A stretch of DNA of 64,000 nt from an uncultured Candidatus Saccharibacteria bacterium (lineage in GTDB: Bacteria > Patescibacteriota > Minisyncoccia > UBA6257 > 2-01-FULL-56-20): positions 615 to 64,614 of the forward strand of contig CAYIAX010000004.1 of the NCBI GenBank assembly GCA_964361595.1, given 5' to 3'. Under the pieces are notes generated by a model. It searched no databases. It worked only from the letters and a program-made list of their open reading frames with translations, and was not told the origin of the DNA. Positions 3,086 to 37,420 of the stretch are shown one piece after another. Both the position numbers and the translations under genes were made by a program. The stretch's first letter is position 1. Each line of letters opens with the position of its first letter.

Positions 3086-3190
3086 TTAATGTGAGCTACC
3101 CCAAATCCTTACCCGCCAGTTTTTGGGCCTGGAATTGCCGGTCGTGTGCGAGACGATTAAGCGAGCTTTAAGCGGAAAAGGCTTGAGGGC

Positions 3191-3236
3191 TTTGCGCGAA
3201 AATTAAGCGACTTCCGATGTCCAAATATTACGCAAT
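3191..3236. terminator. perfect 15-bp inverted repeat (gacttccgatgtcc...gggacatcggaagtc) downstream of the R-M cassette
   Basis: Palindrome seen directly in the sequence. No U-tract, so terminator function is uncertain. Confidence 0.3.
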
Positions 3237-3326
3237 TTCGGGACATCGGAAGTCATTAAATTAGCTCGCAATCCCTGTTATTTCGTGCTAGAATAAGTGT
3301 GCCGCCAAAGCGGCATTCTTCAACTC

Positions 3327-5565: not shown

Positions 5566-5757
5566 ATGTTCAAGCGCTTAATGAATTTTTTGCGTGGGGC
5601 CCGCCAAGAACTGCGCAATGTGAATTGGCCGACGCGGCAGGAAGCCGTGCGTTTAACTTCGGTCGTAATCGGGCTCTCGCTCCTTTTGGCGGTTTTTCTC
5701 GGAGCTTTCGATTATATTTTTTCTTATTTGATTAAATCAGTTTTCTTAAAAATCTAA
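5566..5757 (+). CDS. secE: preprotein translocase subunit SecE
   Basis: 63 aa with a single C-terminal TM helix (VVIGLSLLLAVFLGAFDYIF), directly upstream of nusG as in the conserved secE-nusG-rplK order. Confidence 0.7.
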   Translation: MFKRLMNFLRGARQELRNVNWPTRQEAVRLTSVVIGLSLLLAVFLGAFDYIFSYLIKSVFLKI

Positions 5758-6311
5758 TGGATAAAGAACAGAAACAAGTTGCCGGCAAGCGCGAGTGGTA
5801 CGCCATCCACACCTATTCTGGTTATGAAGAGGCGGTGGCGCGCTACTTGAAACAGCGCGTCGAGTCGCTTTCGATGGAAGATAAGATCTTCAACGTGGTC
5901 GTGCCCACCGAAAAAAAGATCAAGGTAAAAAGCGGCCGCCGCCAGACGATCGAAGAAAAGATTTATCCCGGTTATGTTTTGGTGGAAATGATTTTGGCCG
6001 AGGATTCCTGGTACGTTGTGCGGAATACGCCGCGCGTAACCGGTTTCGTGGGCGCCGACAATACCAAGCCGGCTCCGCTCTCCAAAGAAGAGGTTGAATC
6101 GCTCTTGAACCGGATGGGCCGCGAAGAAAACCGCTATAATGTGGATTTGCGCGTGGGCGACGTCGTCAAGATCATTGACGGGCCGTTCAAGGAGTATGAC
6201 GGCAAAGTTGCGGAGATTGACGAAGAAAAAGGCCGCGTCAAAGTGATGGTGCCGATCTTCGGACGCGACACGGCGGTTGATCTGGATTCATTGCAGGTTA
6301 AGAAACTATGA
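5757..6311 (+). CDS. nusG: transcription termination/antitermination factor NusG
   Basis: NGN domain (WYAIHTYSGYEEAV) plus a KOW domain (GDVVKIIDGPFKEYDGKVAEID). Confidence 0.9.
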   Translation: MDKEQKQVAGKREWYAIHTYSGYEEAVARYLKQRVESLSMEDKIFNVVVPTEKKIKVKSGRRQTIEEKIYPGYVLVEMILAEDSWYVVRNTPRVTGFVGADNTKPAPLSKEEVESLLNRMGREENRYNVDLRVGDVVKIIDGPFKEYDGKVAEIDEEKGRVKVMVPIFGRDTAVDLDSLQVKKL

Positions 6312-6388
6312 CCATCAACTAATTACGAATATCATACGAATAAACGAATTTGTATATTCGTAAAGATTCGATATTCGTTGATAAAAAT

Positions 6389-7515: not shown

Positions 7516-7629
7516 ATGCCCAAATACAAACCCACCATCGGACTTGAGGTTCCCGCCTTCGCTAAAGCTTCCACCGGCGCTAAAGCTATGGCGGACAAGC
7601 TGGCGGGCAAGCACGCTTTATTAATATGA
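7516..7629 (+). CDS. 37-codon upstream ORF whose first 12 codons mimic the gatB N-terminus; its stop TGA overlaps the gatB ATG (ATATGA)
   Basis: MPKYKPTIGLEV... versus GatB MNYQPTIGLEV...; the remainder is encoded by a repeat element (cccgccttcgctaaagct...). Confidence 0.3.
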   Translation: MPKYKPTIGLEVPAFAKASTGAKAMADKLAGKHALLI

Positions 7630-9245
7630 ATTATCAACCAACAATCGGACTTGAGGTGCATGCGGAATTGAAGACGCGAACCAAGATGTTCTGCGATTCT
7701 TTAAACGACCCGGACGAGCGGCACCCAAATGTGAATGTTTGTCCGGTTTGCCTCGGCCATCCGGGAGCCTTGCCGACGATCAACAAGCAGGCCGTGGAGG
7801 CCGTTATCCGCGCGGGTTTGGCCCTGGGCGGAAAGATAAATGAGCGGGCGAAATTTGACCGCAAAAATTATTTTTATCCCGATCTGCCGAAGGGCTATCA
7901 AATCTCGCAGTACGACGAACCGATTGTCACGGGCGGGGAATTAAAAGGAGTGCGGGTGCGCAGAATTCACCTCGAGGAGGATACGGGAACATTGGCGCAT
8001 TTTGCGCCAAGCGCAGACCTGCGCGGACCGGACGCAGATCGACGCGGAAACTTTCTGCGTGAGTCGGCGTTAAGTCAGCGTGAGTCAGCGTCGTTGGTTG
8101 ATTTTAACCGCGCAGGCGTGCCCCTTTTGGAACTTGTGACTGAACCGGACATTACGAGCGCGGAACAGGCGGTGGAGTTCGGCAAGGCTTTACGTCTTAT
8201 TTTCCGTTATCTCGGGATTTCTGATGCCGACATGGAAAAGGGCCAAATGCGGCTTGAAGCCAATGTTTCGCTTCGCGAAACCGCGGATGATCGCGGATCA
8301 AACGCGGATCAACGCGGAAACGGCTTAGGCGAAAATCTCGGGACGAAGGTTGAGATTAAAAACATAAATTCGTTTAAGGCGCTAGGCGTGGCCATAGCTT
8401 ACGAGCTAAAGCGGCAGGAAGAGCATTTAAAAGAGGGAAAAAAGATCGTCCAGGAAACGCGCGGCTGGAACGAAGACAAACAAGCGACCGTTTCCCAGCG
8501 GTCGAAAGAAGAGGCGCACGATTACCGCTATTTCCCTGAACCCGATTTACCGCCCATTCGTCTTACGAATGGTCGAGCCTCGCCCACCGATGTGGGCGGG
8601 CCGCCTTCGGATATCGCCTTCGACATTGAAGCCATCCGCGCTTCGTTGCCTGAATTGCCGGAGCAAAAAATCGGCCGCTTCGAGCGCGAATTCGGAATTT
8701 CTGCCAAGCAAGCCGAACTTCTTGTAAGTGATAAAAAAGTCGCGGATTTTTTTGAAGAAGCTGTTAGCGAACTGGCAACACGAGACGAACTCACTACTTC
8801 TAGGATTGACAAGAAATCACAAGAAATGCTTTTTAACTATATTACTGGTACAGCGAGGGGTATTTACTCCACAATGCTTGTTCAAGAAAATGGAGCTGTG
8901 CTTGGGAAGATAAAACCGGAGCATATAGCCCATTTGATAGATCTTATTTGTGATGGAAAAATAGGCGAACGCCAGGCAAGGGATATCTTAAAGAAAATGT
9001 TTGAGGATGGTTCAGATCCAGAAGAAATTCTAAATCGGGAAGGTTTACACACGGTCTCCGACACAGAAGAACTCAAACTCGTGGTGGAAGAGGTGATCGC
9101 AGAAAATCCCACTGCGGCTGCGGATTATAAAAAAGGCAAAGCACAAAGTTTGCAATTTATGATTGGCAAAGCGATGGGAAAATTGAAGGGCAGAGGGAAT
9201 CCCGGCGTGCTCAAGGAAATTTTTGAGCAGAATCTATCGCAGTAA
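7626..9245 (+). CDS. gatB: Asp/Glu-tRNA amidotransferase subunit B; carries two in-frame repeat-element insertions
   Basis: GatB N-terminus (TIGLEVHAELKT), the CPVCLGHPGALP zinc motif and a C-terminal YqeY-like tail. Low-complexity inserts ADLRGPDADRRGNFLRESALSQRESAS and ADDRGSNADQRGNG. Confidence 0.9.
   Translation: MNYQPTIGLEVHAELKTRTKMFCDSLNDPDERHPNVNVCPVCLGHPGALPTINKQAVEAVIRAGLALGGKINERAKFDRKNYFYPDLPKGYQISQYDEPIVTGGELKGVRVRRIHLEEDTGTLAHFAPSADLRGPDADRRGNFLRESALSQRESASLVDFNRAGVPLLELVTEPDITSAEQAVEFGKALRLIFRYLGISDADMEKGQMRLEANVSLRETADDRGSNADQRGNGLGENLGTKVEIKNINSFKALGVAIAYELKRQEEHLKEGKKIVQETRGWNEDKQATVSQRSKEEAHDYRYFPEPDLPPIRLTNGRASPTDVGGPPSDIAFDIEAIRASLPELPEQKIGRFEREFGISAKQAELLVSDKKVADFFEEAVSELATRDELTTSRIDKKSQEMLFNYITGTARGIYSTMLVQENGAVLGKIKPEHIAHLIDLICDGKIGERQARDILKKMFEDGSDPEEILNREGLHTVSDTEELKLVVEEVIAENPTAAADYKKGKAQSLQFMIGKAMGKLKGRGNPGVLKEIFEQNLSQ
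7991..8095. repeat. GC-type palindromic element, in-frame inside gatB
   Basis: gacgcagatcgacgcggaaactttctgcgtgagtcggcgttaagtcagcgtgagtcagcg: ACGCGGA-type units followed by their reverse complements. Confidence 0.7.
8281..8320. repeat. GC-type element half-copy inside gatB
   Basis: ccgcggatgatcgcggatcaaacgcggatcaacgcggaaa. Confidence 0.6.
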
Positions 9246-9262
9246 TCGCGCGAATAGCGAAT

Positions 9263-10360
9263 TTACGAATTCGCTCGATTCGATTTGATTCGTATTTTCG
9301 TGCGATTATTGCCGTGCGATGACATCCGCAAAAATTTTTGCGCGAGCGCTATGGCCGCTTGCGGAGAAGAAATCCAATGGATTTCTTTGTCGCGCTTGAA
9401 CCAGGTCATCTGCCGCTTGGCGTATTGCCAGATCGCTTTCTCGAGAGCTTGAAGCATTTCAGCTTTTTTCATGAGACCGCGCAGATAATAATTGATAAAA
9501 CGATATTCCAATCCCAAGGCGTCGAGCCGCTTTGAGCTTAATCCTTGTTTTTTGAGTTTCTGAACTTCTGTAATCATTCCCGCTCTCACGCGCTTATAAA
9601 GGCGTTCGTGAATCCGGTTTTTAAGCTCGCGTTCCGGCAAACGCACGCCGATCTTTAAAACTTCATACGGAGATGATTTGCCCAAAGGCGGAACGGGTTT
9701 TTTTGTCGTCAGCACAATTTCGAGCGCTCTTACGAGCCGCCGCGGATTGAAGCGATCAATCGTTTTTGCGCGTTCGGGATCAAGCGCTAAAAGTTTTTTG
9801 TAAAGCGACTCCGTGGTTTCGCGCTCAAGTTTTTTTCGTAAAGCGAAATTCGGTTTCACGGCCGGTAGCGCATAGGCTCCAAGCAAGGCGTTAACATATA
9901 AACCAGTTCCTCCGACAATGATAGGAATTTTATTCTTGGCTAAAGTTTTCTTAATGGCGGTTTTTCCCAGCCGTTGGAATTGAGCGACTGAAAAGATGCG
10001 CTGCGGCGAGGCGACATCAATCAAGTGATGAGGGACACCGCGCATCTCACGCTTAGTAATTTTGCCTGTGCCGATATCGAGCCCGCGATAAACCTGGCGT
10101 GAATCGGCGGAAATAATTTCGGCGCTTTTTCCGTGCCGCTTTAACCATGTCGCTAATTTAATCCCTAGAGTGGATTTGCCGCTGGCGTTGGGGCCGACAA
10201 CAGCAATGATTTTAGGTTTTTTAGTTGTGGTGGACCCCGTTAGAAATAACTTGGGCCAAATCTTTGAGTAATTGTAATCATAGCCCCAGCTGGAATTAGT
10301 TGAAGAGGCAAATTTATAAGTGTAAGCGCGAATTTCTAACGGGGTGGACACCTTGTTCAT
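9263..10360 (-). CDS. miaA: tRNA dimethylallyltransferase
   Basis: P-loop IIAVVGPNASGKST, DSRQVYRGLDIGTGK, and the typical MiaA core. It has a ~48-aa N-terminal extension and a C-terminal tail encoded by AT-type CGAAT repeats. Confidence 0.85.
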   Translation of the reverse strand: MNKVSTPLEIRAYTYKFASSTNSSWGYDYNYSKIWPKLFLTGSTTTKKPKIIAVVGPNASGKSTLGIKLATWLKRHGKSAEIISADSRQVYRGLDIGTGKITKREMRGVPHHLIDVASPQRIFSVAQFQRLGKTAIKKTLAKNKIPIIVGGTGLYVNALLGAYALPAVKPNFALRKKLERETTESLYKKLLALDPERAKTIDRFNPRRLVRALEIVLTTKKPVPPLGKSSPYEVLKIGVRLPERELKNRIHERLYKRVRAGMITEVQKLKKQGLSSKRLDALGLEYRFINYYLRGLMKKAEMLQALEKAIWQYAKRQMTWFKRDKEIHWISSPQAAIALAQKFLRMSSHGNNRTKIRIKSNRANS

Positions 10361-15065: not shown

Positions 15066-15107
15066 TTTTCATACTTTCTAATTCGCGCGAATTAGAAAGT
15101 ATGAAAA
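15066..15107. terminator. perfect 21-bp inverted repeat (ttttcatactttctaattcgcg|cgcgaattagaaagtatgaaaa) between convergent genes; bidirectional terminator candidate
   Basis: Seen directly; flanked by A/T runs on both sides. Confidence 0.55.
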
Positions 15108-15173: not shown

Positions 15174-17198
15174 TCACAGTTTGTAAATAAAGATTGATGT
15201 GCCCGCCCTATAATCCGGTTCGGGGACATTCCCTATTCCTGGTTTTGGCGGGCGAAGCTCGGTAAGCCAGCGGTACTCCTCTTCCGGTTTGCGAACTTGG
15301 CCGGGCACGGTCGGCTGGATTGCGCCTTCAAGCGTATTGACCGAAACCGCTAACCAATGAATCGCGGATTTACGCTGACCATACGCGGACTCGCGCGGAA
15401 AATTTTCTGCGTTGGTCTGCGTTTGGTCTGCGTCGTTCTGCGCCAAAGAGGGGTTGCCGCGACCCGACCACCAATATTCCGCTTTGTCCTCGCCAAGATA
15501 ATATTTAGGATTGGCGCCGCCGAAATAATCAACGGCAATTTTATCGATTTCCGGGTTGGCTTCCACGAATTTCTTGAGCCGCAGCATGTCCTGTCCCCAG
15601 TCGTAGTTCGAATCAGTCACGAAGCGGTAACCGTTCTCTTTGCCGCCGCCAATTTCATTGAAGTAAGAGATGAAGTGAGGCGCATTTACGAGCGTTTCCA
15701 GAATGAACCAAATGACGAGCACGACGACGGCGATATATTTTAACGCGGCCGAGAAGAATAATTTTGCCCAAGCTTTGAGGTTTTGCCAAAAAGAATTTAA
15801 ACGAGGCACTTCAAGTCCGACCACCCATTGTTTCAGGGCGCTTGCCGTGAGGATATAAATGAAGGGAAGCGTCGGGAAAAGATGCCGAAAACCGATATTC
15901 AAAGGGCTCTGCATGCTCCAGCCCCAGTAAAGGATGATGAAAACCAGCATCGCAAATTCCGGAAAACGATTTTCGATGTATTCAAGCACGAAGCGCATTG
16001 CTTGCCGCGGCAGGCGGAATAATTTTCCGAGCATGTTCCGCAAGGCTGTGAGGATGGCGATGAAGATCATGAGGAGCACAGGCAGGGGTTCCTTTAAGGC
16101 ATAAACCACGGGGAAATAAGAAGTCCAGCCGGCGGCGGAAACTTCGCCTAAAAAGTAATTCGTATTTCCTCCCGAAGAGCGCTGGAGCACCATGAGGACG
16201 CCCAGCATGTATTCCGCGAAGGGCCGCGTTACGGGATTTTTTGTGAGCCAAATGTTCAAGTCGGCCAAGCAGCGCAGGGGTTTACAGCTTGCCTCGGGCG
16301 GCGTCGGTCCGTCTGCGAAGGAAGCCAGGATGAACTCCGTATCCGCGGTTTGCTTGGCTTGCGGATAATTGACCGTGAAAAGCGCGTAGACCGGATAAAC
16401 GATTAAAAGGTAGCCGATGCCGAAAATAACGATGAGCGCGCGAACATAACGGAAAGCGCGGATGCCGAAGCGCTTGAAACGCAGTGCCGGATCGGTATTC
16501 CGCCAATCGCGCAGCAAACCCACGCCGTAAAAAGCGATCAGCAAGAAAATGAAATATGGCATCAAAAGCACCGCAGAAAATTTTGCGAGCTGGGCGACGC
16601 CGAAAATAATCCCCGCAATGATTAAATGCTTGCGGGAAGGATGAAGCAAGAAAGTTATGAGCGCATAAGTCGCGGCGAAGACGCCGAAAGCAGCAGCGAC
16701 ATCGGTGGTAACGTAATGGCCGTGCGCAAGGATATTAGGCGAGAGGGCAAAAATCCCCGCTGGCAAGAGCGCCCAGAATTTGCCAACGAGCTCCCGCGCC
16801 CAAAAATAAATGAGCCAGACAAGGATGAGCGTCAAGAGCATGGGCCCGATGCGCGCAACCTGGATAATTTTGTCCGCATCATTGCCCGCGCCGTAAAGAA
16901 AATTCCAGCCCATCGCCCATTGGCCGTTTACCTCTTGCCAAGGCGGAATGTCGGTCGGGAGAGTTGGATTGAATGTTAAGAGCGGCAAACCAGCCAAAGC
17001 TTTAAGGAGCGGCGGATGCTCCGGGTTCAAACGAAAGTCCAGATTGTGAACGTAAGCGTAGCCAGCCGGAATATGAGCCAGCTCGTCCATGATCGCCGAT
17101 TCCTCGAGCGACGAATAGGTCATGAGCCCCGCAGCCGCTATCGTGATAAGTACGAGGATCCAGATCGGCCAGACGCGCGGATTCAAAGATGACTCCAT
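15174..17198 (-). CDS. polytopic membrane glycosyltransferase, GT39/PMT/ArnT-like family
   Basis: More than 10 predicted TM helices. First loop has MDELAHIPAGYAY...NPEHPPLLK, resembling the DE-motif loop of PMT/ArnT-type transferases. Contains a GC-type element in-frame (15361-15447). Confidence 0.55.
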   Translation of the reverse strand: MESSLNPRVWPIWILVLITIAAAGLMTYSSLEESAIMDELAHIPAGYAYVHNLDFRLNPEHPPLLKALAGLPLLTFNPTLPTDIPPWQEVNGQWAMGWNFLYGAGNDADKIIQVARIGPMLLTLILVWLIYFWARELVGKFWALLPAGIFALSPNILAHGHYVTTDVAAAFGVFAATYALITFLLHPSRKHLIIAGIIFGVAQLAKFSAVLLMPYFIFLLIAFYGVGLLRDWRNTDPALRFKRFGIRAFRYVRALIVIFGIGYLLIVYPVYALFTVNYPQAKQTADTEFILASFADGPTPPEASCKPLRCLADLNIWLTKNPVTRPFAEYMLGVLMVLQRSSGGNTNYFLGEVSAAGWTSYFPVVYALKEPLPVLLMIFIAILTALRNMLGKLFRLPRQAMRFVLEYIENRFPEFAMLVFIILYWGWSMQSPLNIGFRHLFPTLPFIYILTASALKQWVVGLEVPRLNSFWQNLKAWAKLFFSAALKYIAVVVLVIWFILETLVNAPHFISYFNEIGGGKENGYRFVTDSNYDWGQDMLRLKKFVEANPEIDKIAVDYFGGANPKYYLGEDKAEYWWSGRGNPSLAQNDADQTQTNAENFPRESAYGQRKSAIHWLAVSVNTLEGAIQPTVPGQVRKPEEEYRWLTELRPPKPGIGNVPEPDYRAGTSIFIYKL
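15361..15447. repeat. GC-type palindromic element inside the GT39-like gene
   Basis: atcgcggatttacgctgaccatacgcggactcgcgcggaaaattttctgcgttggtctgcgtttggtctgcgtcgttctgcgcc. Confidence 0.7.
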
Positions 17199-17260: not shown

Positions 17261-19243
17261 ATGAAGGTCCCCAAGAAAAACATTTCCCGCCGCTTGGCTG
17301 ATATCAAAAATCGCAGCCAGGCCGTTCCCGAAGCCAAAGCAGAAGCCCCGATTGCCGTCGAGCGGATAATTTCAGTTTTTAAACCTGTAGCCGAGAAAAC
17401 CAGCTTGCCCAAGCGCAAATGGCCGCAGCGTTTGACTTTGATCGCCATAGTTTTTGCCTTGCTCGTCTTTGCGGGCTATGAGATTTTCGCTCGATCCGGC
17501 AGTATTGCCGGAATTCGAGCCAAGTTGAATTGGGCGGCAGGCGAAGGCGGGCCAACCGGTGAAACGTCCGGATTAAGTTGGGAGCAATTTTCAGCCAAGC
17601 TCAAACCTATTTTTGAAGAAGGCGGCGGGTTTTATGGAGATTTAGGCTTACTGGGATCGGCTTTCCTTAATTTATCTTCGGAAGCTGCGAAACTAGATAG
17701 TGCGCTCCAGGACGCACTCTTAGGCAAAAGCGGCGAACCGCTTTTGCGCGAGCTTAAGTCCACCGAGAATTATTTAAACGAGCTAAGCTCAACCTTAAGC
17801 TCGCTCACAAAAGAGGAAAGTATATTGAGCGGCGAAAATGCAGGCGCGCGGGCAGAAATATTGGGAGCCCAGCTCGAAGTCAACCGCATTTCGGAATTCC
17901 TTAAAGCTTTTATCCCGTGGCTTGCCGCGGACGAACCGCATCGGCTGGTGGTGATCCTGGGCAATTCTTCCGAGCTGCGGCCTGGAGGCGGGTTTATCGG
18001 CAGCTATGCCGAACTTAAATTGGAGAAAGGCCGGCTGGCGGAAATTAACGTCAGGGACATTAACGAACCCGATCGCTTGTTGGAGAAAAAAATAATTCCG
18101 CCGCGGCCGTTGCAGTTTCTCGTAAAAAATTGGCGCGCGGCCGATTCGAACTGGTTTTTCGATTTTTCGCAATCCGCACGGAAATTTATCGATTTGCTTT
18201 CGCAGTCTGAACTATACAAAGGAACAAAGCTTGAGGGCGTGCTCGCTGTTTCTTCGCAAGTTGTGAGCGATCTTTTGGGCATGACTGGTCCGATCGAGGC
18301 TGAGGGCACAGTTTTGACCAGTAAGAATTTTCTGCAGTCCATCCAGACGGATGTGCAATCGGACCAAGCCGAAGGAGCGGCCGAGCCGAAACAGCTTTTG
18401 AAATCCGTGGCCCCGCTCTTGCTTCAAGGCGCGGCAAAACTTTCCTTGGAAGATAAAAGGAAGCTTTTGGAGAAAATCGGCGAGTGGGTGAAGAACAAGG
18501 ATTTGCTTTTTTATTTCACCGAGCCGGAATTTGAAAAGCTGGCATCCGCCTATGAGTCTGCCGGCAAGGCTTACATTTTGCCGCGGGGCGAGAATGTAAA
18601 TTACCTGGCCGTAGTTAATGCCAACGTAGGCGGCGGCAAGAGCGACCTATACTTGGATCAAAATATCTTTTGGCAGGTCAGGCTGCGGGAAAACGGCGGG
18701 GCGGATTACAAAGTGCTTGTCGAGAAAACACATCGCGGAAATCAGAGCTCTTTTTGGTGGTATCAAGTGCCGAGCGAACACTATACGCAAGTCATTGTTC
18801 CTAAAGATTCCATACTCCTTGCGGCGAGCGGGGGCCGGGCGCGCGGAGCGCCGCCGCGTACGTACGACAGCACCTACGAAAGAGATCCGGATGTCGTGAG
18901 CTGGGAAGCGAGCCGAAAAATAAATGAAGAACTCCCAATGATTGAAGAATATGAAAATGGCAATAAAAGAATTTTTGCCACCTGGATGAAAACGCCTGTA
19001 GGCGAGACAAGTAGGTTAACGCTCGAATACTCTGGCCGGTTGCCGAAGCTGCCGCTTATTGGTCAGACATACAGCTTTGTGGTTGAAAAACAGGCGATGA
19101 GCCGCAGCGGTTTCAAGCTGGAGACGCTGGCTCCCGCCGGTTTCCGCTTCCGCGAAAATCATTTGCCCGTATATGAATATGAAACGCCCGCCTTGCCCGG
19201 CCGCTTGAGCCTAGAACTCACACTTGAGGCAGTACCTGAATAA
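17261..19243 (+). CDS. membrane-anchored hypothetical protein, tentatively DUF4012-like
   Basis: N-terminal TM helix (LTLIAIVFALLVFAGY) and motif VVILGNSSELRPGGGFIGSYAEL. The family name is from memory and unverified. Confidence 0.4.
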   Translation: MKVPKKNISRRLADIKNRSQAVPEAKAEAPIAVERIISVFKPVAEKTSLPKRKWPQRLTLIAIVFALLVFAGYEIFARSGSIAGIRAKLNWAAGEGGPTGETSGLSWEQFSAKLKPIFEEGGGFYGDLGLLGSAFLNLSSEAAKLDSALQDALLGKSGEPLLRELKSTENYLNELSSTLSSLTKEESILSGENAGARAEILGAQLEVNRISEFLKAFIPWLAADEPHRLVVILGNSSELRPGGGFIGSYAELKLEKGRLAEINVRDINEPDRLLEKKIIPPRPLQFLVKNWRAADSNWFFDFSQSARKFIDLLSQSELYKGTKLEGVLAVSSQVVSDLLGMTGPIEAEGTVLTSKNFLQSIQTDVQSDQAEGAAEPKQLLKSVAPLLLQGAAKLSLEDKRKLLEKIGEWVKNKDLLFYFTEPEFEKLASAYESAGKAYILPRGENVNYLAVVNANVGGGKSDLYLDQNIFWQVRLRENGGADYKVLVEKTHRGNQSSFWWYQVPSEHYTQVIVPKDSILLAASGGRARGAPPRTYDSTYERDPDVVSWEASRKINEELPMIEEYENGNKRIFATWMKTPVGETSRLTLEYSGRLPKLPLIGQTYSFVVEKQAMSRSGFKLETLAPAGFRFRENHLPVYEYETPALPGRLSLELTLEAVPE

Positions 19244-21141
19244 TGAATGTACGCAATTTTGTAATCATCGCGCATGTTGATCACGGAAAATCTACCTTAG
19301 CGGATAGGTTATTAGAGGCGACGGGGACTGTGGAGAGCCGGCGCATGCGGCCGCAGTATTTGGACCAGCTTGAACTTGAGCGCGAGCGGGGGATCACGAT
19401 TAAGATGGCCCCAGTCCGCATGGTTTATCATGCGGAATTTCGAAATTCGAATATCGAAACCCGAAACAAATTAAATTCGGATTTTGGATTTCGTGCTTCG
19501 GATTTATCAAATTCAGAATTCATTCTGAATTTGATCGATACACCTGGCCACTCCGATTTCTCTTACGAAGTTTCACGAGCGCTTGCGGCCGTGGAAGGCG
19601 CGGTGCTTTTGGTTGATGCCACGAAGGGCATCCAGGCTCAAACGCTTTCTAATCTGCGCGCGGCCAAAGCCGCGGGGCTTAAAATCATTGGCGCGGTAAA
19701 TAAGATAGATTTGAATTCACCGCATCTCGAAGATACCGTGCGGACGCTCGCCAGTCTCTTAGCTGTCCCGGAAAATGAAATTTTGCGAATTTCGGGAAAA
19801 ACCGGAGTAGGCGTGGAGGAACTTTTGAAAAAAATCGTCGAGGTGGTTCCGCCGCCCCAGCTTCCGCGCGGATCCGCCCTAGATCCGCAAGTATCCGTGC
19901 CCCCGAGGGCATTAATTTTTGATTCTCTTTACGACGACCATAAAGGCATTCTGGCTTACGTACGCGTTTACGACGGAGTTTTCCGTCCGGGCGAAGAGTT
20001 GGTGTTTTTGGCCGGCGCCGGCAAAACAAAAATAAAAGAAGTCGGTTATTTTGCGCCCGAACTGAAGCCCGTCAAAGAACTGCGCGCAGGCGATATCGGC
20101 TATATCGCGACCGGCTTAAAGGAGCCCGCGCTCGTAAAGATCGGGGATACCGTTATCGGATATCAGAAGTCGGAGATCAGACGTCCGATATCTGACATCC
20201 GAAATCTGGCTTTGCCCGGTTACCGCGAACCGGCACCGGTGGTTTTCATTTCACTTTATCCTGACGGCGAGACGAAATTTGAAGATTTGAAAAAAGCTTT
20301 GGAGCGGTTGCGGTTAACGGATGCGGCGCTGTCTTTTGAGCCCGACTCGAACGAAGCTTTGGGTCGCGGGCTTAAGGTGGGATTTTTAGGCCAGCTTCAT
20401 TTTGAGATCACTGCGACCCGATTGGAGCGCGAATTTAATCTAAGCTTCATCACGAGTTTCCCTTCGATCGCATATAAAGTGCGCGAACGCGGCAAAGAAT
20501 ATATTGTAACCGACGCTCACCAGTTTCCCGATGATCCCGACGAAGTGCTACAGCCGATGATTGATATCGAGATCATCACACCGCCGGTTTATCTGAATTC
20601 GATCGTAAATCTAAGCCAGGTTTTTGATCTCTCTGTAAAAGAAATTAGAACGATGGGTGAGCAAACCGTGGTTGCGGGCGTGATGCCCTTGATGGAGCTA
20701 ATCCGAGATTTTGACGATCAATTGAAATCCGTTTCGGCTGGCTACGCTTCGTTCAGTTATGAATTGGGAGAGTTGGCGCCGGCGGAAGTCGAAAAATTGG
20801 AAATTATAATCGCGAACGAAGTGGTACCGGCCTTGACCAGGATAATTTTCAAAAAAGAGGCCGAACGGGAAGGGCGGGCAACCGTGGAAAGGCTGAAGGA
20901 TCTTTTGCCCAAGCAGCAGTTCGCGCAGGCAGTCCAAGCGATGGTTAGGGGGCGGATCATTGCGCGCGAGACGATTCCTGCCATGCGTAAAGATGTGACA
21001 GGGTATCTTTACGGCGGCGACCGCTCGCGGAAGATGAAATTATGGAAAAAACAGAAGCGAGGCAAGGAAAAGCTCTTAGCTTCGGCTAAGGTAAGGGTCC
21101 CTGTGAATGTGTTTAAGGAAATCCTTAAGAAATCCAAATAG
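19243..21141 (+). CDS. lepA: elongation factor 4 (LepA) with an in-frame AT-type repeat insertion
   Basis: G-domain IIAHVDHGKSTLADRLL, DTPGH, NKID, and a C-terminal LepA_C domain. Insert EFRNSNIETRNKLNSDFGFRASDLSNSEF lies between G1 and G3. Confidence 0.9.
   Translation: MNVRNFVIIAHVDHGKSTLADRLLEATGTVESRRMRPQYLDQLELERERGITIKMAPVRMVYHAEFRNSNIETRNKLNSDFGFRASDLSNSEFILNLIDTPGHSDFSYEVSRALAAVEGAVLLVDATKGIQAQTLSNLRAAKAAGLKIIGAVNKIDLNSPHLEDTVRTLASLLAVPENEILRISGKTGVGVEELLKKIVEVVPPPQLPRGSALDPQVSVPPRALIFDSLYDDHKGILAYVRVYDGVFRPGEELVFLAGAGKTKIKEVGYFAPELKPVKELRAGDIGYIATGLKEPALVKIGDTVIGYQKSEIRRPISDIRNLALPGYREPAPVVFISLYPDGETKFEDLKKALERLRLTDAALSFEPDSNEALGRGLKVGFLGQLHFEITATRLEREFNLSFITSFPSIAYKVRERGKEYIVTDAHQFPDDPDEVLQPMIDIEIITPPVYLNSIVNLSQVFDLSVKEIRTMGEQTVVAGVMPLMELIRDFDDQLKSVSAGYASFSYELGELAPAEVEKLEIIIANEVVPALTRIIFKKEAEREGRATVERLKDLLPKQQFAQAVQAMVRGRIIARETIPAMRKDVTGYLYGGDRSRKMKLWKKQKRGKEKLLASAKVRVPVNVFKEILKKSK
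19434..19527. repeat. AT-type palindromic element (CGAAAT/ATTTCG units) in-frame in lepA
   Basis: gaatttcgaaattcgaatatcgaaacccgaaacaaattaaattcggattttggatttcgtgcttcggatttatcaaattcagaattc. Confidence 0.65.
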
Positions 21142-21224
21142 GGTTCGCGAATAATGAAAATTCGCATTATTTGCAAATATTCGCGTTATTCGCGATTACT
21201 CCTAAATTCATTTATCCTAAAGAG

Positions 21225-22079: not shown

Positions 22080-22760
22080 ATGCAAAAAGAAGAACTGTTA
22101 AAAGAACTCACACGTGACGGATATTTAAAGAGTGAGAATGTTAAAGCCGCGTTTTCGGCTATCGATCGGAAGGATTTTGTCGCTCCCGGTTTTGAAGCAG
22201 AGGCATACTTGAATGTGCCCCTGCCGATCGGTTTTGGCCAGACGATTTCACAGCCTTTGACCGTTGTTTTTATGCTGGAGCTTTTGGACCTAAAACCGGG
22301 CCAGAAAATTTTGGAAATCGGTTCGGGATCGGGTTGGCAGACCGCAATGCTTGCTTATCTTGTAAGCAAGCCGCGGACTGACGCGGACTTTACGCAGATC
22401 AACGCAGAAAATAATCAAGAAAAATCCGCAGGCAGAGTAATTGCCATCGAGCGGATTCCGGAACTTCTGCGGATGGGGGAGAGAAATGTCAGCAAATACA
22501 ATTATGTGAGCAAAGGCACGGTGAAATTTGTCGAGGGCGACGGCTCGAATGGTTATGCGGCTGATGCTCCCTATGACCGGATCATTGGCGCGGCGAGCGC
22601 GGATAAATTGCCGGAAGCTTGGCGCGAGCAGTTGGCCGTCGGCGGACGGATCGTTACGCCCATTCGACAAAGCGTAATCGCTTTTGATAAGCTTTCGGAG
22701 AAAGAATTTAAAGAGACGGAATATCCGGGCTTTATCTTCGTGCCGCTTGTTAAAGGCTAG
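22080..22760 (+). CDS. pcm: protein-L-isoaspartate O-methyltransferase with a GC-type element insert
   Basis: GQTISQP, SAM motif LEIGSGSGW, and a C-terminal GGRIVTPI. Insert KPRTDADFTQINAENNQE. Confidence 0.8.
   Translation: MQKEELLKELTRDGYLKSENVKAAFSAIDRKDFVAPGFEAEAYLNVPLPIGFGQTISQPLTVVFMLELLDLKPGQKILEIGSGSGWQTAMLAYLVSKPRTDADFTQINAENNQEKSAGRVIAIERIPELLRMGERNVSKYNYVSKGTVKFVEGDGSNGYAADAPYDRIIGAASADKLPEAWREQLAVGGRIVTPIRQSVIAFDKLSEKEFKETEYPGFIFVPLVKG
22370..22412. repeat. GC-type element half-copy in pcm
   Basis: gcggactgacgcggactttacgcagatcaacgcagaaaat, preceded by the hairpin cttgcttatcttgtaagcaag. Confidence 0.6.
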
Positions 22761-22828
22761 TAAGCAGTAATTAGTAAGTAGTAGGTGGTAGAAGCGAAGC
22801 GGGCTTGCCCGCCATAGCTTTAGCGAAG

Positions 22829-23280: not shown

Positions 23281-23911
23281 CTTCGCGTGAGCAGTAACTA
23301 GTTGATATTTAAGGTCATGCAGGATGAGTTGTCAACCGGAGTCGTTAAGAAGGTGGCTTGTAAGTAGCGTACGCCTTTGTTTAGACTATATTGATAAGGG
23401 CGTCCAAGTGGCGGAGATTGCCGATTATATCAATCAACTCTTGGTCATGCGCCTGCCATCGAGTTCGAACGTCCTTCAGAATGCTGCTCCATGAATAAAT
23501 TTAAATCTCTAAAATGGCTGCTCCGGGCCGGGGCCATGTATTACCTTATCGGCGGCTTCGCCCACTTTTTTGGCTTAACAATTTTTCCCTGAACATAGTT
23601 GCAGGGTTTCCGAAGGGACTTTTTTTCTTGCTTTTAACTTGGCGAGCATCTCCCCTCTTGTTCGGTCTCATTCGTACGAATGGTTCCATAAAGAATAGCT
23701 AAAAATCAGCTAGATATAATTTACTAGTGGATTCTATATCGCGGTCTTTGTATTAATCTACTTGCTTGGCCCCTGTCTGCTCGTTTCGTTTGAGCTCCAG
23801 TGAACTGGCCGGGCAGGCGAATATACCAACTTTCGTATATTCGCAGTAAATTCGTATTTCGTAGCACACGTATTGCTACCTTGGCCAGTTTTGATTTACT
23901 ATCTATAAGCA

Positions 23912-29705: not shown

Positions 29706-30881
29706 GTGATCAGATCCTTTTTTGCTCCTAAGGAAACATCGTGGGTACTTGAAGTTTTGCCGGGAGAGGTGCGAGCCACCTCGCTCGTTTTGGATACGGA
29801 AAAAAGGATCCAGATTCGGCGGCACTGGCAAGGGGAGTCTTGGAGGGATTTGCCAAAGAGTTTCCGTTTCACGGGCCAGGTTATCGTCTCCATCCATGCG
29901 ACGCTTGCCACGACTACGATTATTCCCGTGGGCGATATGCGGGAAAATCCCGATGAACCGCTCGTGGCGAACGAACTCGAAAATCTTATTTCGCGCGCAG
30001 TCGGGAAAATTTTCAATCAATGCCGGCAAGCGGCGGCACGCGAACTGCGGGTGGATGAAATTGACATCTTCTTGGCCAAAAGCCGTGTCATTAATTTCAA
30101 ATTAGATGATCATGTAGTTTTGAATCCCGTCGGTTTCCGCGCGGAAAAAATTGAAGCGGTTCTGGAGCTCATGCTGACCACGCGTCCCTTGATCGGGGAG
30201 CTTAAACAACTTTTTAAAGAAAGGCGTGAAATATTTTTTACGCAAACCGAGCGTGCCATTCTCCTTGATCTCGAGAAGCTGCACGGACCACCGTTGGGAC
30301 TGCTTGAGCTGGGAGAAGAATCTTTCTTTTTCCTCATGGAGAAGGCGGCCGTGGGCGAAATGCTCTCGCGCGGTAAATTCAACTGGTCGCCGCAGATGCT
30401 TTTACATGCTTTGGCCGGTGAATTATCCGTGAGCGGTGGAGCTGCGCGCAAGATCTACCATGCATTTTTGCGGGGGGAGGTTTCAGCGAATATGGGAAAG
30501 CACATAAAAAAGGCGCTCGATCCCCAGTTGAAGCTCTTTTATGAGGAGTTGGGCCGCACCCGGCTTAGGGGCAAAGTCTTTGTTTTATCCGGCCTGCCCT
30601 TGCCGATTTCTCTGCCGCAAAAGCGCCAAAACCTGATTTTATCTGAACCGCCGCTTACGCCAATGCTTGACCATTTCGGCTTGGCTTTGGCCCCCTATCG
30701 GCCGGAAACCTGCCGGCGGCCGTTCGAGGTTTTGGCTCCTTGGCTCGAATTTTACCTCGACAAAAGTGACTCGAAAATAAACCAGTGGCTGCGCCGTCAT
30801 TTAAATTGGCTGGGGCCTGTGCATGAGTCCCAAGCCGGCCCGGGGCAGCGTCAAATCAAGCTTCCATTTCTCGAGCAGTGA
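29706..30881 (+). CDS. hypothetical protein (GTG start)
   Basis: 391-aa ORF with good coding periodicity and no recognised motif. Confidence 0.55.
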   Translation: MIRSFFAPKETSWVLEVLPGEVRATSLVLDTEKRIQIRRHWQGESWRDLPKSFRFTGQVIVSIHATLATTTIIPVGDMRENPDEPLVANELENLISRAVGKIFNQCRQAAARELRVDEIDIFLAKSRVINFKLDDHVVLNPVGFRAEKIEAVLELMLTTRPLIGELKQLFKERREIFFTQTERAILLDLEKLHGPPLGLLELGEESFFFLMEKAAVGEMLSRGKFNWSPQMLLHALAGELSVSGGAARKIYHAFLRGEVSANMGKHIKKALDPQLKLFYEELGRTRLRGKVFVLSGLPLPISLPQKRQNLILSEPPLTPMLDHFGLALAPYRPETCRRPFEVLAPWLEFYLDKSDSKINQWLRRHLNWLGPVHESQAGPGQRQIKLPFLEQ

Positions 30882-31035
30882 GCTATACTTACTAAGAATC
30901 TACGAATTCTCGATCCGAATGTTTTCCCTATCGCGCGAATGCCGAATTCATTGCGAATACACGAATTACAAGCCAAAAATTCGTAAATTCGATTAGTAAG
31001 AAATTCACTATTCGTGCGATTATTATTCGGATGCC

Positions 31036-32700
31036 ATGAAAAAGTTATTTGTTGAAAAAACCCAATCTTTGCCGGCGATTGTCGAAAAAATTATCAATGA
31101 TCCCGAACAGGATCTTGTTTTAGTCATTCCGCGGCAGGCTAAAATCGGGGAGTCGGCAAACAATTTTCGGCTCTTAAAACGAGAAGCCGAAGCGGCCGGC
31201 AAAAGCGTTGCCGTGGAATCAGTTGATGAAACGATTCTCGTCTTGGCTGAAGCGGAGGACATCAAGGGCTCCCACCCGCTCTTCAGGGATAACATCCAGC
31301 GTTCTTTGGCTGACATTGTGCCTGCGGCCGCAGTGAAAGAAGAAAGCGCGGCGAAACGGGCGAAAACCGCGGCCAAGAAAACCGGCGAGCCGACAGTTAC
31401 GGTTGTGAGAAAAGAGCCGCCGGCAATCTCGTCGGCAGCGCAACCGGAGCCGGAACCAGAACCAGAGCCTATGCGGATAACGAGGCGCGCCGTCGAGCCG
31501 ATTGCGGTTCCCGAAGCCTACGAAGATGAAGAAGCGGAAGAAGAAACCGGCGTGCGGCCGTTTTGGCTCCGGCTGAAGTTTATCCTGCCTTTCTTAGTAG
31601 TCATAATTTTGGCTTTGGGCATTTGGATCGTGACGGCGTTTTTCGCCAGGGCGGAAGTGGTTTTGACCTTAAATGAAACTCCCTGGAGCCATGAGGGAAC
31701 GGTTTTGGCGAGCAAGGCAGTTGCGCGCATAAATCCAGCCGCCTTTTCACTGCCGGCGCAGGTCTTTACCCAATCTAAAAACGCTACCCAGCTTTATCCG
31801 GCCTCAAAGCGAGCCCAGGTAACTCAAAAAGCAAAAGGTAAAATCACGATTTACAACGCCTACAGTTCGCAACCGCAGTCTTTGGTTGCAACAACGCGTT
31901 TTGCGACTTCGGAAGGAAAAATTTACCGCTTGGTTTCCGCCGTTACGATCCCCGGCGCCAAAGTGGAAGGCGGCAAGCTTACGCCTGCGAGCGTCGAAGC
32001 CGAAGTGGCCGCTGGTGAACCAGGCCCTGCCTATAACACGGGTCCGGTGCCGAAGCTCACCATTCCTGGTTTCCAGGGCACGCCAAAGTATGACAAGTTT
32101 TACGGCGCGCTGCTTGCCGGCGCAAGCGGCGGGGCGATCGGCGAACGCGCCGTGGCCTCGGACGCCGACATCGCGGCCGCGAAACAAAAAACCGAAGAAC
32201 TCTTAAAATCAACTTTAGCCAATAATTTTCTCTCCACGCGCTCTTCCGACTTTCTGTTTTTGGAGGGGGCTTCCCGCTTAACGATCGGCAAAATGACGGT
32301 GAACACGACAACGGATGATAACGGCAACTTCGGTGTTTTCGGCGAAGCTTCGCTCCAGGCGATCGGTTTTAAGGACACGGATTTGAAAACCCTGCTCGAG
32401 CTACTCGCGACTAAAGGTGACAGCGGCAAAGAATTTAGAGACTTGGAAATGATCTATAACTTGGCCGTGCCAGATTTTGCCCGCGGCGAGATTAAATTTG
32501 TGGTGCGTGCTTCGGGAACTTTGGTTTCCGCAATTGACGAAAGGGGGCTTAAGGACGACTTGAAGGGGAAAAGCTTAGAGCTTGTAAAATCGGAGGTGGC
32601 CAAAGTGCCGGGCTTGCATGACGCTGATGTTTCCGTGTGGCCATTTTGGCTGCGCAGTCTGCCTGGGGATAGTAATAAAATTAAGGTTTCCATCCAATAG
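31036..32700 (+). CDS. hypothetical single-pass membrane protein with a large extracytoplasmic domain
   Basis: Cytoplasmic N-domain, PEPEPEPEP linker, TM helix (FILPFLVVIILALGIWIVTAFF), then a ~350-aa C-domain. Confidence 0.6.
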   Translation: MKKLFVEKTQSLPAIVEKIINDPEQDLVLVIPRQAKIGESANNFRLLKREAEAAGKSVAVESVDETILVLAEAEDIKGSHPLFRDNIQRSLADIVPAAAVKEESAAKRAKTAAKKTGEPTVTVVRKEPPAISSAAQPEPEPEPEPMRITRRAVEPIAVPEAYEDEEAEEETGVRPFWLRLKFILPFLVVIILALGIWIVTAFFARAEVVLTLNETPWSHEGTVLASKAVARINPAAFSLPAQVFTQSKNATQLYPASKRAQVTQKAKGKITIYNAYSSQPQSLVATTRFATSEGKIYRLVSAVTIPGAKVEGGKLTPASVEAEVAAGEPGPAYNTGPVPKLTIPGFQGTPKYDKFYGALLAGASGGAIGERAVASDADIAAAKQKTEELLKSTLANNFLSTRSSDFLFLEGASRLTIGKMTVNTTTDDNGNFGVFGEASLQAIGFKDTDLKTLLELLATKGDSGKEFRDLEMIYNLAVPDFARGEIKFVVRASGTLVSAIDERGLKDDLKGKSLELVKSEVAKVPGLHDADVSVWPFWLRSLPGDSNKIKVSIQ

Positions 32701-37149: not shown

Positions 37150-37420
37150 TGGAAACCGAGGGTTTCCAAGGAGCGCGCGACGCCGCAGTGGCAGAAGCGT
37201 TAATTTGCCCGGAGGGAAAGGCCTGGCCTGCCCTTGCCTACAGGCAGGCAGGGGTTTCCAAGGAGCGAAGCGACGCCACAGTGGTAAAAACGGTAGCTGC
37301 TTCCGCCAAATGGCAGAATTTATGAATCATACGGAAAATCATACGATTTTCCGTATGATTCTTTTGAACCGAGGGGTTTGAGGGAGCGTAGCGACCCCGC
37401 AGTGGCAGAAACATTAGTTA
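37150..37420 (+). repeat. three tandem degenerate copies of the last ~45 nt of rpsI (gggtttccaaggagcg..gcgacgccgcagtggcagaagcgttaa), spaced ~90-125 bp apart
   Basis: Copies at ~37153-37205, 37245-37297 and 37370-37420, each ending in a TAA/TAG-like triplet. Confidence 0.6.

Follow-up and report, generated by a model that had tools for sequence, protein, structure and literature searches.

What is the nature of the AT-rich palindromes that lie both between genes and, in frame, within conserved genes of this DNA? The whole 64-kb stretch that was analysed, which we term the window, comes from a groundwater Patescibacteria genome, and we consider it likely that its palindromes are non-autonomous elements without an ORF, derived from small selfish cassettes of two families. 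A previous reading, made from the sequence alone, had placed them in a single AT-type family built from one vocabulary of short units. Repeated palindromes do occur in spacers and in frame, but they differ in their arms and in their ORF-bearing relatives. Judged from these features, the AT-type label spans two unrelated families, so the earlier interpretation was only partly right. Family A has arms of tandem CGAAT/ATTCG units and comprises all the spacer copies together with both copies in a GT2 gene; its ORF-bearing relatives carry PF13366. Family B is built from TCCGAAA/CGAAAC units and comprises the copies in lepA and tsaD; its relatives carry PF05635. The proposal that all coding and spacer copies share the same units is therefore not upheld, since lepA and tsaD use CGAAA/TTCGG and the rest CGAAT/ATTCG.

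The cassettes of both families follow a common plan, in which an ORF of ~120 aa lies between inverted arms made of tandem 7-11-nt units. The family A cassette carries the gene for a GxxExxY protein of PD-(D/E)XK nuclease fold (PF13366/TIGR04256), and that of family B, with an outer TCCGAAGCACGAA motif, the gene for a four-helix-bundle '23S rRNA IVS protein' (PF05635). We found no description of these elements in the literature on in-frame palindromes in CPR, GxxExxY, PF13366, PF05635 or the sequence motifs.

Palindromes in the spacers

All seven spacers picked out in the sequence-only reading hold imperfect palindromes. Convergent clusters of CGAAT and ATTCG units occur eight times in the window (at 6326, 9251, 21148, 30903, 40447, 51673, 53934 and 54918) compared with 0.07 expected, and 70 of 83 related loci are without them. 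Each of the 11 copies that were folded as DNA forms a better hairpin than its shuffled versions (z -2.19 to -5.04). Global 6-mer enrichment gave nothing useful; the signal is one of local clustering. Family A has at least 10 copies in the 64 kb, which are small and have terminal inverted repeats.

The copy at 6312-6388 (z -4.18) fills the spacer between the stop codon at 6311 and the start of rplK at 6389, and a compound palindrome of 10 units at 30885-31035 (z -3.20) fills that from 30881 to 31036. The copies at 21142-21224 and 40430-40520 directly follow the stop codons of lepA and hsp20, and that at 51664-51745 (z -4.41) abuts the atpF start codon at 51663. A CGAAT-type hairpin is found at the same position after lepA in locus L004. 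The palindrome at 9247-9330 lies between convergent genes, and supplies the last ~15 codons of miaA (NNRTKIRIKSNRANS) with the stop codon. One copy that was missing from the earlier list, at 23815-23870, matches that at 6312 at 78% over 45 nt. Spacers are filled from stop codon to start codon by cassettes, and far more often by ORF-less palindromes. The copies in the window are divergent from each other, the best pair (40430-40520 and 51664-51745) being 81% identical over 79 nt, so that nothing points to recent transposition in this genome.

One copy (47862-47957, forward strand, CGAAT/CTAAT units) lies between the two ATP synthase genes. Within it, 47869-47913 keeps a cassette start and N-terminal codons (ATG CAT GCG AAT GAT ACT AAT...), and the copy matches the left arm of the L212 cassette at 94% over 32 nt, L211 at 89% over 35 nt and L090 at 95% over 21 nt. 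Further matches of window copies to family A cassette arms are 83% over 35 nt and, for the copy after lepA against the right arm of the GxxExxY cassette of L080, 79% over 43 nt.

The six frames of 12 copies contain 73 stop codons compared with 95.4 +/- 6.7, a depletion that is real but modest. At the gathering threshold Rfam found only three tRNAs in the whole window, and when six metagenome copies were scanned permissively, the only matches were to generic long-hairpin miRNA models and fell below threshold. TIGR-Tas stem-loop arrays were considered and rejected, as the copies are single, scattered and in some cases inside genes; a Pfam scan of ten window ORFs found no Tas.

In-frame copies in LepA, TsaD and GT2

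In-frame copies are found in loops of the conserved proteins LepA, GT2 and probably TsaD of this Paceibacteria-like lineage. It had been suggested that the palindromic elements insert in frame into conserved genes, and this is borne out by equally close orthologues of lepA and GT2 in which the sites are empty. Related genomes differ in whether one and the same codon position is empty, filled by an ORF-less copy or filled by an ORF-bearing one. Only a subset of Paceibacteria-like genomes has the inserts, and orthologues from unrelated phyla do not share them.

The lepA gene (19243-21141, forward strand; ...VRMVYHAEFRNSNIETRNKLNSDFGFRASDLSNSEFILNLIDTPGH) has an insert between G1 and DTPGH, as the sequence-only reading had it. 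This adds ~24 residues to the G domain, between strands b2 and b3. The stretch from GITIK to DTPGH is 54 aa in length, where 58 of 86 related loci have 26-35 aa and the other 28 have 42-182 aa. Whether the coding copies map to surface loops had been posed as a check; in an AF2 model residues 64-91 form a low-confidence coil (pLDDT 54-72) in the b2-b3 loop, flanked by strands at 58-63 and 92-99. A GxxExxY domain occupies the same loop in 12 of 120 orthologues. The lepA ORF is intact and free of stop codons in all 86 loci despite very different inserts, and thus the inserts are translated.

At the left junction (19415-19436, forward strand) the first codons of the insert, CATGCGGA (H-A-E), are an inverted copy of the host codons TCCGCATG (V-R-M) and pair with them. 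The same layout with covarying arms is seen in L004, L002, L014, L018, L023 (17 bp), L050 (21 bp) and L068. In the family B core that follows (19435-19505, forward strand) a left arm of CGAAAT/CGAAAC units abuts a right arm (TTCGGATTT..TTTCGTGCTTCGGATTT), and the whole is translated as EFRNSNIETRNKLNSDFGFRASD. When the two arms were used as separate queries against the metagenome, the left arm was found in 43 loci and the right arm in 123, with 92-97% identity over 31-36 nt. The right junction hairpin (19506-19535, forward strand) has a perfect stem of 14 bp, in which the last codons of the insert, ATCAAATTCAGAAT, are the inverted copy of the host codons ATTCTGAATTTGAT (I-L-N-L-I). The predicted peptides MVYHAEFR, NSNIETR and ASDLSNSEFILNLIDTPGH would span junctions in LepA. 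A small palindrome in domain II (20160-20215, forward strand; ATCGGATATCAGAAGTCGGAGATCAGACG/TCCGATATCTGACATCCGAAATCTG, translated as YQKSEIRRPISDIRNL) forms a second variable loop.

The tsaD gene (44956-46098, reverse strand) contains the sequence SDFGFRAS, as had been noted, read in the same frame as the right-arm segment of lepA. Its DNA (…TTTCGGATTTCGGGTTTCGTGCTTCGAT, 45593-45631, reverse strand) resembles a family B right arm and is 92% identical to that of lepA over 25 nt; TTCGGATTTNGGNTTTCGTGCTTCG is common to the two genes, with two matches in the window and none expected. In the adjoining junction hairpin (45632-45663, reverse strand) the host codons TTCTCTTTTCTTC (FSFLL) pair with GAAGAAAAAAGAAAG (KKKES). 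The TsaD loop is 13 aa longer than that of T. maritima (6n9a). Its 43 aa are close to the usual length among relatives (32-58 aa, mode 40), so an insertion is visible only against distant TsaD, and no orthologue with an empty site was found among the relatives compared. The shared segment thus stands, but tsaD is not a clear case of presence and absence.

The GT2 gene contains the sequence GAATCTACYAATYCATCCGAA exactly twice, at 53881 and 54922; these are the sole occurrences in the window, with none expected, and this 21-nt sequence matches the common core previously reported for the two copies. At site 1 (54915-54983, reverse strand) the ORF-less copy, in which ANDIRMPRIVE is followed by SEHSDELVDSNR, consists of the parts of a GxxExxY cassette that code for the N and C termini, without the core between them, and matches L089_R at 90% over 21 nt. 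Three states can be compared at this site. It is empty in P0241, it holds arms with a PF13366 domain in P0242 (as judged from the protein sequence), and it holds arms only in the window. At site 3 (53868-54008, reverse strand; z -3.68) there is an insert of 47 aa (CGRQSEKSELHSNAPNTYRINNPNYSDMPIQQGHSDTSDGLVDSDRGQ) that is absent from P0242 and from ~45 distant orthologues. Site 2 is occupied by a GC-type element that aligns to L086 as two blocks of 77-78% identity; the extra ~372 nt between the blocks in L086 is a GxxExxY core. Among related proteins the GxxExxY domain is thus found at sites 1 and 2. The window GT2 protein itself gave no Pfam hit; it retains only terminal remnants of a few codons.

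Cassettes, junctions and alternative origins

Free-standing GxxExxY genes in L090, L089, L080, L211 and L212 are flanked by arms of the kind CGATGCGAATATACGAATGCATACGAAT...//...ATTCGTATAATTCGTTCAATTCGTATATTCGCATCG; that of L090 lies at 1501-1896. N- or C-terminal extensions are present in 79 of 120 GxxExxY homologues, and many of these read MHTNDTN.../...RIDTDAKNKFV, which is what the arm DNA (ATG CAT ACG AAT...) would encode. The domain assignment is well above the cut-offs in related proteins, with PF13366 scores of 70.8 (P0242), 101.6 (P0241) and 112.8 bits (P0005) for a cut-off of 22, and TIGR04256 scores of 69-118 bits for a cut-off of 35. PF13366 is listed as being of unknown function (PMC3424549).

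The right-arm pattern of family B matches more than 120 metagenome contigs. The left arm, which lies outside the search pattern, recurs in 43 of these with 92-97% identity, and contigs with near-identical arms span GC contents of 0.35-0.69. The arms bracket PF05635 ORFs in three contigs: L134 (44.5 bits) and L137 (48.3 bits), both above the cut-off of 33.8, and L200, whose ORF matches PF05635 seed proteins by phmmer only (E 2.2e-05). In six-frame readings of the metagenome matches, high-GC contigs yield long spurious ORFs.

The 64-kb window has no ORF-bearing copy of either family. Its sole ORF-bearing cassette, at 57108-57675, contains a PF05635 gene (57210-57548, 106.5 bits) between 35-nt arms, the units of which differ from those of the AT families. 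An HMM built from the GxxExxY domains within LepA gave no match in the window and just two matches across 1.5 Mb of related loci. In viral contigs there were three matches to the family B pattern and none to the family A start motif, and hence no evidence of carriage by phage. The presence of two unrelated ORF families in one kind of cassette suggests that the ORFs may be carried as cargo and not supply the enzyme for mobilisation. We infer the direction from ORF-bearing to ORF-less forms; alternatively the ORFs could home into pre-existing palindromes.

At the coding sites the ends of the inserts are exact inverted copies (7-21 bp) of the flanking host codons of the same genome. Of the 28 filled lepA loci, 15 have a right stem of 12-15 bp, compared with 3-7 bp (9 bp in one) in empty loci, and the left stem is up to 21 bp. 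An exact inverted copy of at least 12 nt of the genome's own host arm is present in 13 of 25 filled loci, compared with 5.8% of cross-locus pairings. In L061 the two junction palindromes are both present but enclose nothing. Hairpins of this kind are also found at the junctions of tsaD, PCMT and GT2 sites 2 and 3, and at GT2 site 3 (the window and L086) the host residues adjoining the insert can be rewritten into palindromes. Nine complete intergenic family B copies from the metagenome have neither a target-site duplication nor any consistent junction hairpin.

The inverted copies of host codons point to a step, on insertion or on excision, in which a hairpin or fold-back forms. The short forms would arise by internal deletion of the ORF, with its first and last codons kept. 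Insertion or excision would proceed through a DNA break, at which the ends form hairpins or fold back and are then extended; for family A the putative GxxExxY nuclease could be the enzyme that makes the break. The resulting palindromic junctions might later be re-used as landing pads, which would explain the hot-spot loops. It is possible, and we suggest it tentatively, that the palindrome-armed GxxExxY and PF05635 cassettes form an unrecognised class of mobile element that moves via hairpin or fold-back intermediates on the target, generating inverted rather than direct target duplications and palindromic scars that are re-used as landing pads.

Could the spacer palindromes instead be regulatory hairpins of the host (terminators, RNase III sites or mRNA stabilisers), with an incidental likeness to the coding copies? 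Their position exactly between genes, often directly after a stop codon, would suit such a role, as would the hairpin 3' of lepA in both the window and L004 and the better folding of every copy than of its shuffles. Yet none of the palindromes has the T-run seen in other hairpins of the window that resemble intrinsic terminators (797-854 and 37324-37361), most related loci are without the clusters, and the copies within LepA and GT2 cannot be terminators. Moreover the same sequences are arms of ORF-bearing cassettes elsewhere, and one retains the cassette start codon. We therefore regard a purely regulatory origin as improbable, although the spacer palindromes may have a secondary use as terminators.

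There is likewise only a slim chance that the palindromes were made locally, by template-switching and slippage during replication (the growth of quasi-palindromes) in a hairpin-tolerant genome with no mobile element involved. Such a process may well explain the junctions, where the hairpins are templated by and covary with the adjacent host codons and where host residues have been rewritten at GT2 site 3, and the unit sequences do vary between loci. But it does not explain the cores of the elements, given that both arms in lepA are nearly identical to those of dozens of unrelated contigs of widely differing GC content, that family A copies match cassette arms of other genomes, and that the arms bracket ORFs. 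It is very unlikely that the inserts are removed before or after translation, in the manner of an intein or intron or by RNA-stem cleavage and ligation, to give mature proteins that lack them. In a single strand, folding of the arms and the junction hairpins would place the two host ends side by side, and rRNA intervening sequences with PF05635 ORFs are known to be excised at the RNA level. However, removal from RNA would not require the open frame that is preserved in every lepA locus, Rfam found no intron or other family, and in P0005, P0241 and P0242 Pfam found only PF13366 and the host domains, with no intein or Hint domain. Derivation from cassettes is thus the reading that we prefer.

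Relation to known elements and significance

On the basis of architecture, the closest analogues are the Rickettsia palindromic elements and the intervening sequences of rRNA. The former are short palindromic repeats found in spacers and in frame in conserved genes of a reduced genome, where the protein fold tolerates the extra peptide (PMC10969869). The in-frame palindromes in conserved ORFs with empty sites in orthologues (LepA, GT2 sites 1 and 3) resemble these, although the host phylum is different and the likeness is judged on architecture. The elements described here also differ in being composed of tandem 7-11-nt units with ORF-bearing relatives (PF13366 and PF05635), in bearing inverted copies of host codons at their junctions, and in that the same loops have been re-used by different types of element in different lineages. 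To our knowledge no ORF-bearing parent is known for the Rickettsia elements.

The intervening sequences of 23S rRNA in Leptospira and Coxiella have a PF05635 (S23p/IVS) ORF flanked by inverted repeats, which pair into a long stem; they exist also in short ORF-less versions, and are cut out by RNase III. Their site, too, is in an exposed region of a gene product that is essential and conserved. In family B, likewise, a PF05635 ORF can lie between the arms that make up the short element. By contrast the sites here are spacers and loops of protein-coding genes and not rRNA helices (the window contains no rRNA gene), and the insert is translated and kept in the product.

In being small, present in many copies, hairpin-forming, bounded by inverted arms and probably derived from longer ORF-bearing relatives, the elements are similar to MITEs and REPINs. 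They differ in that the nine metagenome copies have no direct target-site duplication and the coding junctions are inverted copies of the target, and neither the PF13366 nor the PF05635 ORF belongs to a recognised class of transposase (DDE or Y1/RAYT). Homing endonucleases and inteins provide a further comparison, as here too a nuclease-fold ORF recurs, in frame, at shared conserved positions in the essential genes of scattered lineages. However, the GxxExxY domain is flanked by palindromic unit-repeat arms, and since no intein or Hint domain accompanies it in the three proteins scanned, it would remain inside the host protein.

We note that these observations extend to the Patescibacteria/CPR a phenomenon best known from Rickettsia, that of selfish DNA inside protein-coding genes. 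Core proteins of translation and tRNA modification are affected in CPR, and their sequences must be inflated and diversified; this has consequences for the annotation of CPR genomes, for phylogenetic markers and for the prediction of protein structure. Two widespread families of unknown function, the GxxExxY PD-(D/E)XK proteins and the four-helix-bundle "IVS protein", are tied to a common cassette plan, of which ORF-less derivatives are abundant. The near-identity of family B arms across such a range of GC content implies either horizontal spread or strong constraint, and the latter would act on a 35-40-nt DNA or RNA motif that is present in no RNA family database. The inverted host-codon junctions, matched to their own genome, are a concrete molecular footprint of the entry or exit of an element. 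If the cassettes were indeed a new class of mobile element, the in-frame colonisation of loops in essential proteins would become possible, two large protein families would gain a function, and the origin of rRNA intervening sequences would have a mechanism.

Palindrome families in the window

The window derives from a groundwater member of the Patescibacteria that is Paceibacteria/Liptonbacteria-like. An identical LepA protein is encoded on one Hainich aquifer contig, and the closest homologues (60-70% identity) are from Liptonbacteria and Parcubacteria. The GC content is ~0.50 and the genes are densely packed. Eight CGAAT/ATTCG clusters (at least four pentamers in the layout >>> <<<) were observed in the window where 0.07 would be expected, mapping onto the spacers in which the sequence-only reading had placed palindromes and onto sites 1 (54915-54983) and 3 (53868-54008) of the glycosyltransferase (GT2) gene. 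The copy at 47862-47957 has CGAAT/CTAAT units, and an additional copy absent from that reading lies at 23815-23870. Folding of 11 copies as single-stranded DNA gave z-scores of -2.19 to -5.04. The spacer palindromes are confirmed. The motifs claimed within genes are also present. The lepA gene (19243-21141) encodes VRMVYHAEFRNSNIETRNKLNSDFGFRASDLSNSEFILNLIDTPGH; SDFGFRAS of tsaD (44956-46098, minus strand) is encoded by a 25-nt stretch common to lepA (two matches, none expected); and the window has exactly two copies of the 21-nt GT2 core (53881 and 54922).

These copies do not constitute the single AT-type family that had been proposed. All-against-all comparison of the window copies groups those of lepA and tsaD (92% over 25 nt; TCCGAAA/CGAAAC units, family B) apart from the CGAAT copies of the spacers and GT2 (family A). 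The copies at 40430 and 51664 match (81% over 79 nt), as do the two in GT2 and the pairs 6312/23801 and 9247/30885. Further palindromes are built of other units, among them CTAGAA (57110, 58205) and the GC-rich CGCAGA/CGCGGA (7991, 15351, 22380, 43321, 44391 and 54511). AT and GC types are found together in the same genomes. Among related loci, 70 of 83 lack all four unit types scanned, and clusters of the CGAAT type are confined to a few (L004, L014, L064 and L016).

We note several other repeats. The miaA gene ends within a palindromic element (9263-9330), which provides its final ~15 codons (NNRTKIRIKSNRANS) as well as its stop codon and has thus become its C-terminus. The hairpins at 797-854 and 37324-37361 (86% identity, ATACGGAAAATC units followed by T-runs) resemble ordinary intrinsic terminators and belong to a repeat family of their own. 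A perfect 42-nt palindrome with 21-bp arms and no loop (TTTTCATACTTTCTAATTCGCGCGAATTAGAAAGTATGAAAA) occupies 15066-15107 in a spacer between convergent genes, and tsaD contains a second perfect hairpin with a 13-bp stem (AAAAATTTGCCGA...TCGGCAAATTTTT) at 45847-45879, distant from the SDFGFRAS loop. Two long imperfect palindromes at 3192-3271 and 51961-52060 have their own units (GACTTCCGAT; CAATTT/AAATTG). Upstream of lepA in a relative, a 321-nt spacer (L004, 9685-10005) has a very strong folding energy of -139.9 kcal/mol; a structured RNA and a large compound palindrome are both conceivable.

Insertions within genes and their junctions

The coding copies had been interpreted as in-frame insertions, and this holds for LepA and GT2. 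Most of the 120 proteins closest to LepA have a GITIK..DTPGH stretch of 26-31 aa, but in others it extends to 65 aa, or to 181-191 aa. Of 86 loci compared as DNA, 58 have a short stretch (26-35 aa) and 28 a long one (42-182 aa). Of relatives equally close to the window protein (69% identity), P0008 is empty while P0002 and P0003 are filled with related or different sequences. Aligned with Thermus thermophilus EF4, the insert falls between strands b2 and b3 of the G domain, where EF4 has a gap, and in an AlphaFold model (pLDDT 85) residues 64-91 are predicted to be coil (pLDDT 54-72) between strands 58-63 and 92-99, in keeping with the suggested location in a loop. None of the 86 loci has an interrupted reading frame although the inserts differ strongly, so that, judging from the sequences, the inserts must be translated. 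GT2 has three inserts, none present in ~45 distant orthologues, and every site differs in one or both of the two close orthologues. By contrast, the TsaD loop (43 aa) has a length like that of its relatives (mode 40) and is longer only than distant TsaD (+13 aa compared with 6n9a); insertion there is plausible. Two more LepA loops are variable, GDTV..PGY (16-47 aa, window 20140-20230) and VPPP..ALIFD (16-49 aa, 19850-19930), the long forms being mostly GC-type palindrome peptides in various lineages.

The lepA insert folds into three hairpins. In the first, host codons V-R-M are paired with the first insert codons, and in the last the final insert codons are paired with host codons I-L-N-L-I in a perfect 14-bp stem. 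Of 28 filled LepA sites, 15 have a right stem of 12-15 bp; in empty sites it measures 3-7 bp (9 bp in a single case). Left stems are on average 6.7 bp long in filled sites, where they extend to 17 and 21 bp, and 3.7 bp in empty ones. Synonymous differences between the host arms are mirrored in the inverted copies. An exact inverted copy (at least 12 nt) of its own host arm is found at the insert end in 13 of 25 filled loci, but in just 5.8% of cross-locus pairings. The pattern is common to AT-type, GC-type and ORF-bearing inserts (the last in L073). In the related locus L061 there is zero net insert, and the loop consists of the two junction palindromes placed directly against each other (VRMVY-HSD-QVE-YMLNL; perfect hairpins of 12 and 9 bp); this looks like the footprint of an excision, or may be a primed site. 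Similar junction hairpins lie beside the inserts in tsaD, PCMT (22349-22371) and GT2 sites 2 and 3, and at site 3 the adjoining host residues are rewritten into palindrome in both the window and L086. Nine intergenic family B copies had neither direct duplications nor consistent junction hairpins.

Cassettes with GxxExxY and PF05635 genes

At GT2 site 1 the orthologue P0242 has ANTMRMPRIVE, a ~110-aa domain and then FADSHVFEDSHR; at the corresponding position the window has ANDIRMPRIVE followed by SEHSDELVDSNR, and P0241 has no insert. The domain is the GxxExxY protein (PF13366/TIGR04256), catalogued as of unknown function (PMC3424549). Its homologues are mostly free-standing proteins of 120-175 aa in CPR genomes. 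Extensions at the N- or C-terminus occur in 79 of 120, and many read MHTNDTNK.., DANILMHTNYTN or ..RIDTDAKNKFV. These are translated arm DNA (ATG CAT ACG AAT GAT ACG AAT ... and ... AAA TTC GTA TAA). In L090, L089, L080, L211 and L212 the gene is flanked by inverted CGAAT/ATTCG arms that span the whole spacer between the preceding stop codon and the start codon that follows. Window 47855-47889 matches the left arms of L212 (94% over 32 nt), L211 (89% over 35 nt) and L090 (95% over 21 nt); 40489-40523 matches the L090 left arm (83% over 35 nt), 21159-21201 the L080 right arm (79% over 43 nt) and 54923-54943 the L089 right arm (90% over 21 nt). A cassette-type N-terminal reading of 14 residues is kept at 47869-47913.

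GC-type elements behave like family A. In 12 of 120 LepA orthologues (P0005, P0007, P0020, P0022, P0036, P0042, P0057, P0079, P0080, P0090, P0100 and P0119; DNA example L073, 9920-12241) the b2-b3 loop contains a GxxExxY PD-(D/E)XK domain of ~115 aa between GC-type arms, an in-frame insert of ~150 aa including arms. Pfam detected no intein domain in P0005 or in the GT2 orthologues P0241 and P0242. At GT2 site 2 the window and L086 align in two blocks (77-78% identity) either side of ~372 extra nt in L086, which are a GxxExxY core. GC-type arms in relatives flank GxxExxY domains in both LepA and GT2. In the window the palindromes (CGCAGA/CGCGGA/CGCTGA) lie at 7991-8090, 8281-8320, 15351-15450, 22372-22440, 43321-43420, 44391-44490 and 54511-54610, and are in frame in at least five genes (the 7626-9245 ORF, a PMT-like glycosyltransferase, PCMT, the 41749-44568 ORF and GT2).

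The family B pattern TTYGGANTTCGTGCTTCGGANTT matches at least 120 metagenome contigs (GC 0.35-0.69 among the matches listed). The lepA left arm, which is outside the pattern used to find them, is present in 43 contigs among those listed (92-97% identity over 31-36 nt). The arms are usually 50-190 nt apart, leaving no space for an ORF; wider spacings are 601 nt in L200 and 838 nt in L137. A PF05635 ("23S rRNA IVS protein") ORF lies between the arms in L134, L137 and L200, and the lepA copy is a minimal version with both arms abutting. The window itself has a complete PF05635 gene (57210-57548) between 35-nt CTAGAA/TTCTAG arms, 86% complementary and 498 nt apart, so the cassette architecture is present in this genome. 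The same stretch (57108-57675) has an additional ORF-less palindrome (57110-57198), with a similar one (58205-58310) after the following gene; a CCAGCTT tandem repeat of ~5 copies (57557-57591) lies directly past the PF05635 stop codon. L086 has two more PF05635 genes (2850-3420 and 5600-6330) with arms of CAGTAGG/CCTACTG and GTCCTAT tandem units, resembled by an AGTAG-rich stretch upstream of tRNA-Gly in the window (22760-22800).

Possible mechanism and known elements

The cassette architecture is established, as are ORF-less and ORF-bearing forms at identical sites, the preserved frame, and junctions that are inverted copies of their own flanks. The short forms could have arisen by internal deletion of cassettes, or ORFs could have invaded older palindromes; deletion is favoured because the start codon and terminal codons are retained. 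A break in the target would lead to hairpin or fold-back intermediates. Hairpin ends opened off-centre leave palindromic nucleotides, and end joining can show snap-back synthesis; the proposed processing resembles both. For family A, the protein with the GxxExxY nuclease fold suggests itself as candidate enzyme, but this is far from certain because an unrelated four-helix-bundle ORF occupies the same kind of cassette.

Intervening sequences carrying an S23p ORF are a known element type in rRNA, and family B behaves in a parallel way. The elements differ from MITEs in lacking direct target-site duplications, and from inteins in having no intein domain. The behaviour of the window palindromes runs parallel to that of Rickettsia palindromic elements (PMC10969869). 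In the literature we found neither a description of such elements from CPR nor one that traces in-frame palindromes to GxxExxY/PF05635 cassettes as their parents. The palindromic scar left by the proposed hairpin or fold-back processing may be used again, which would turn certain loops into hot spots. It is a serious possibility that the junction signature reflects a new mechanism of insertion.
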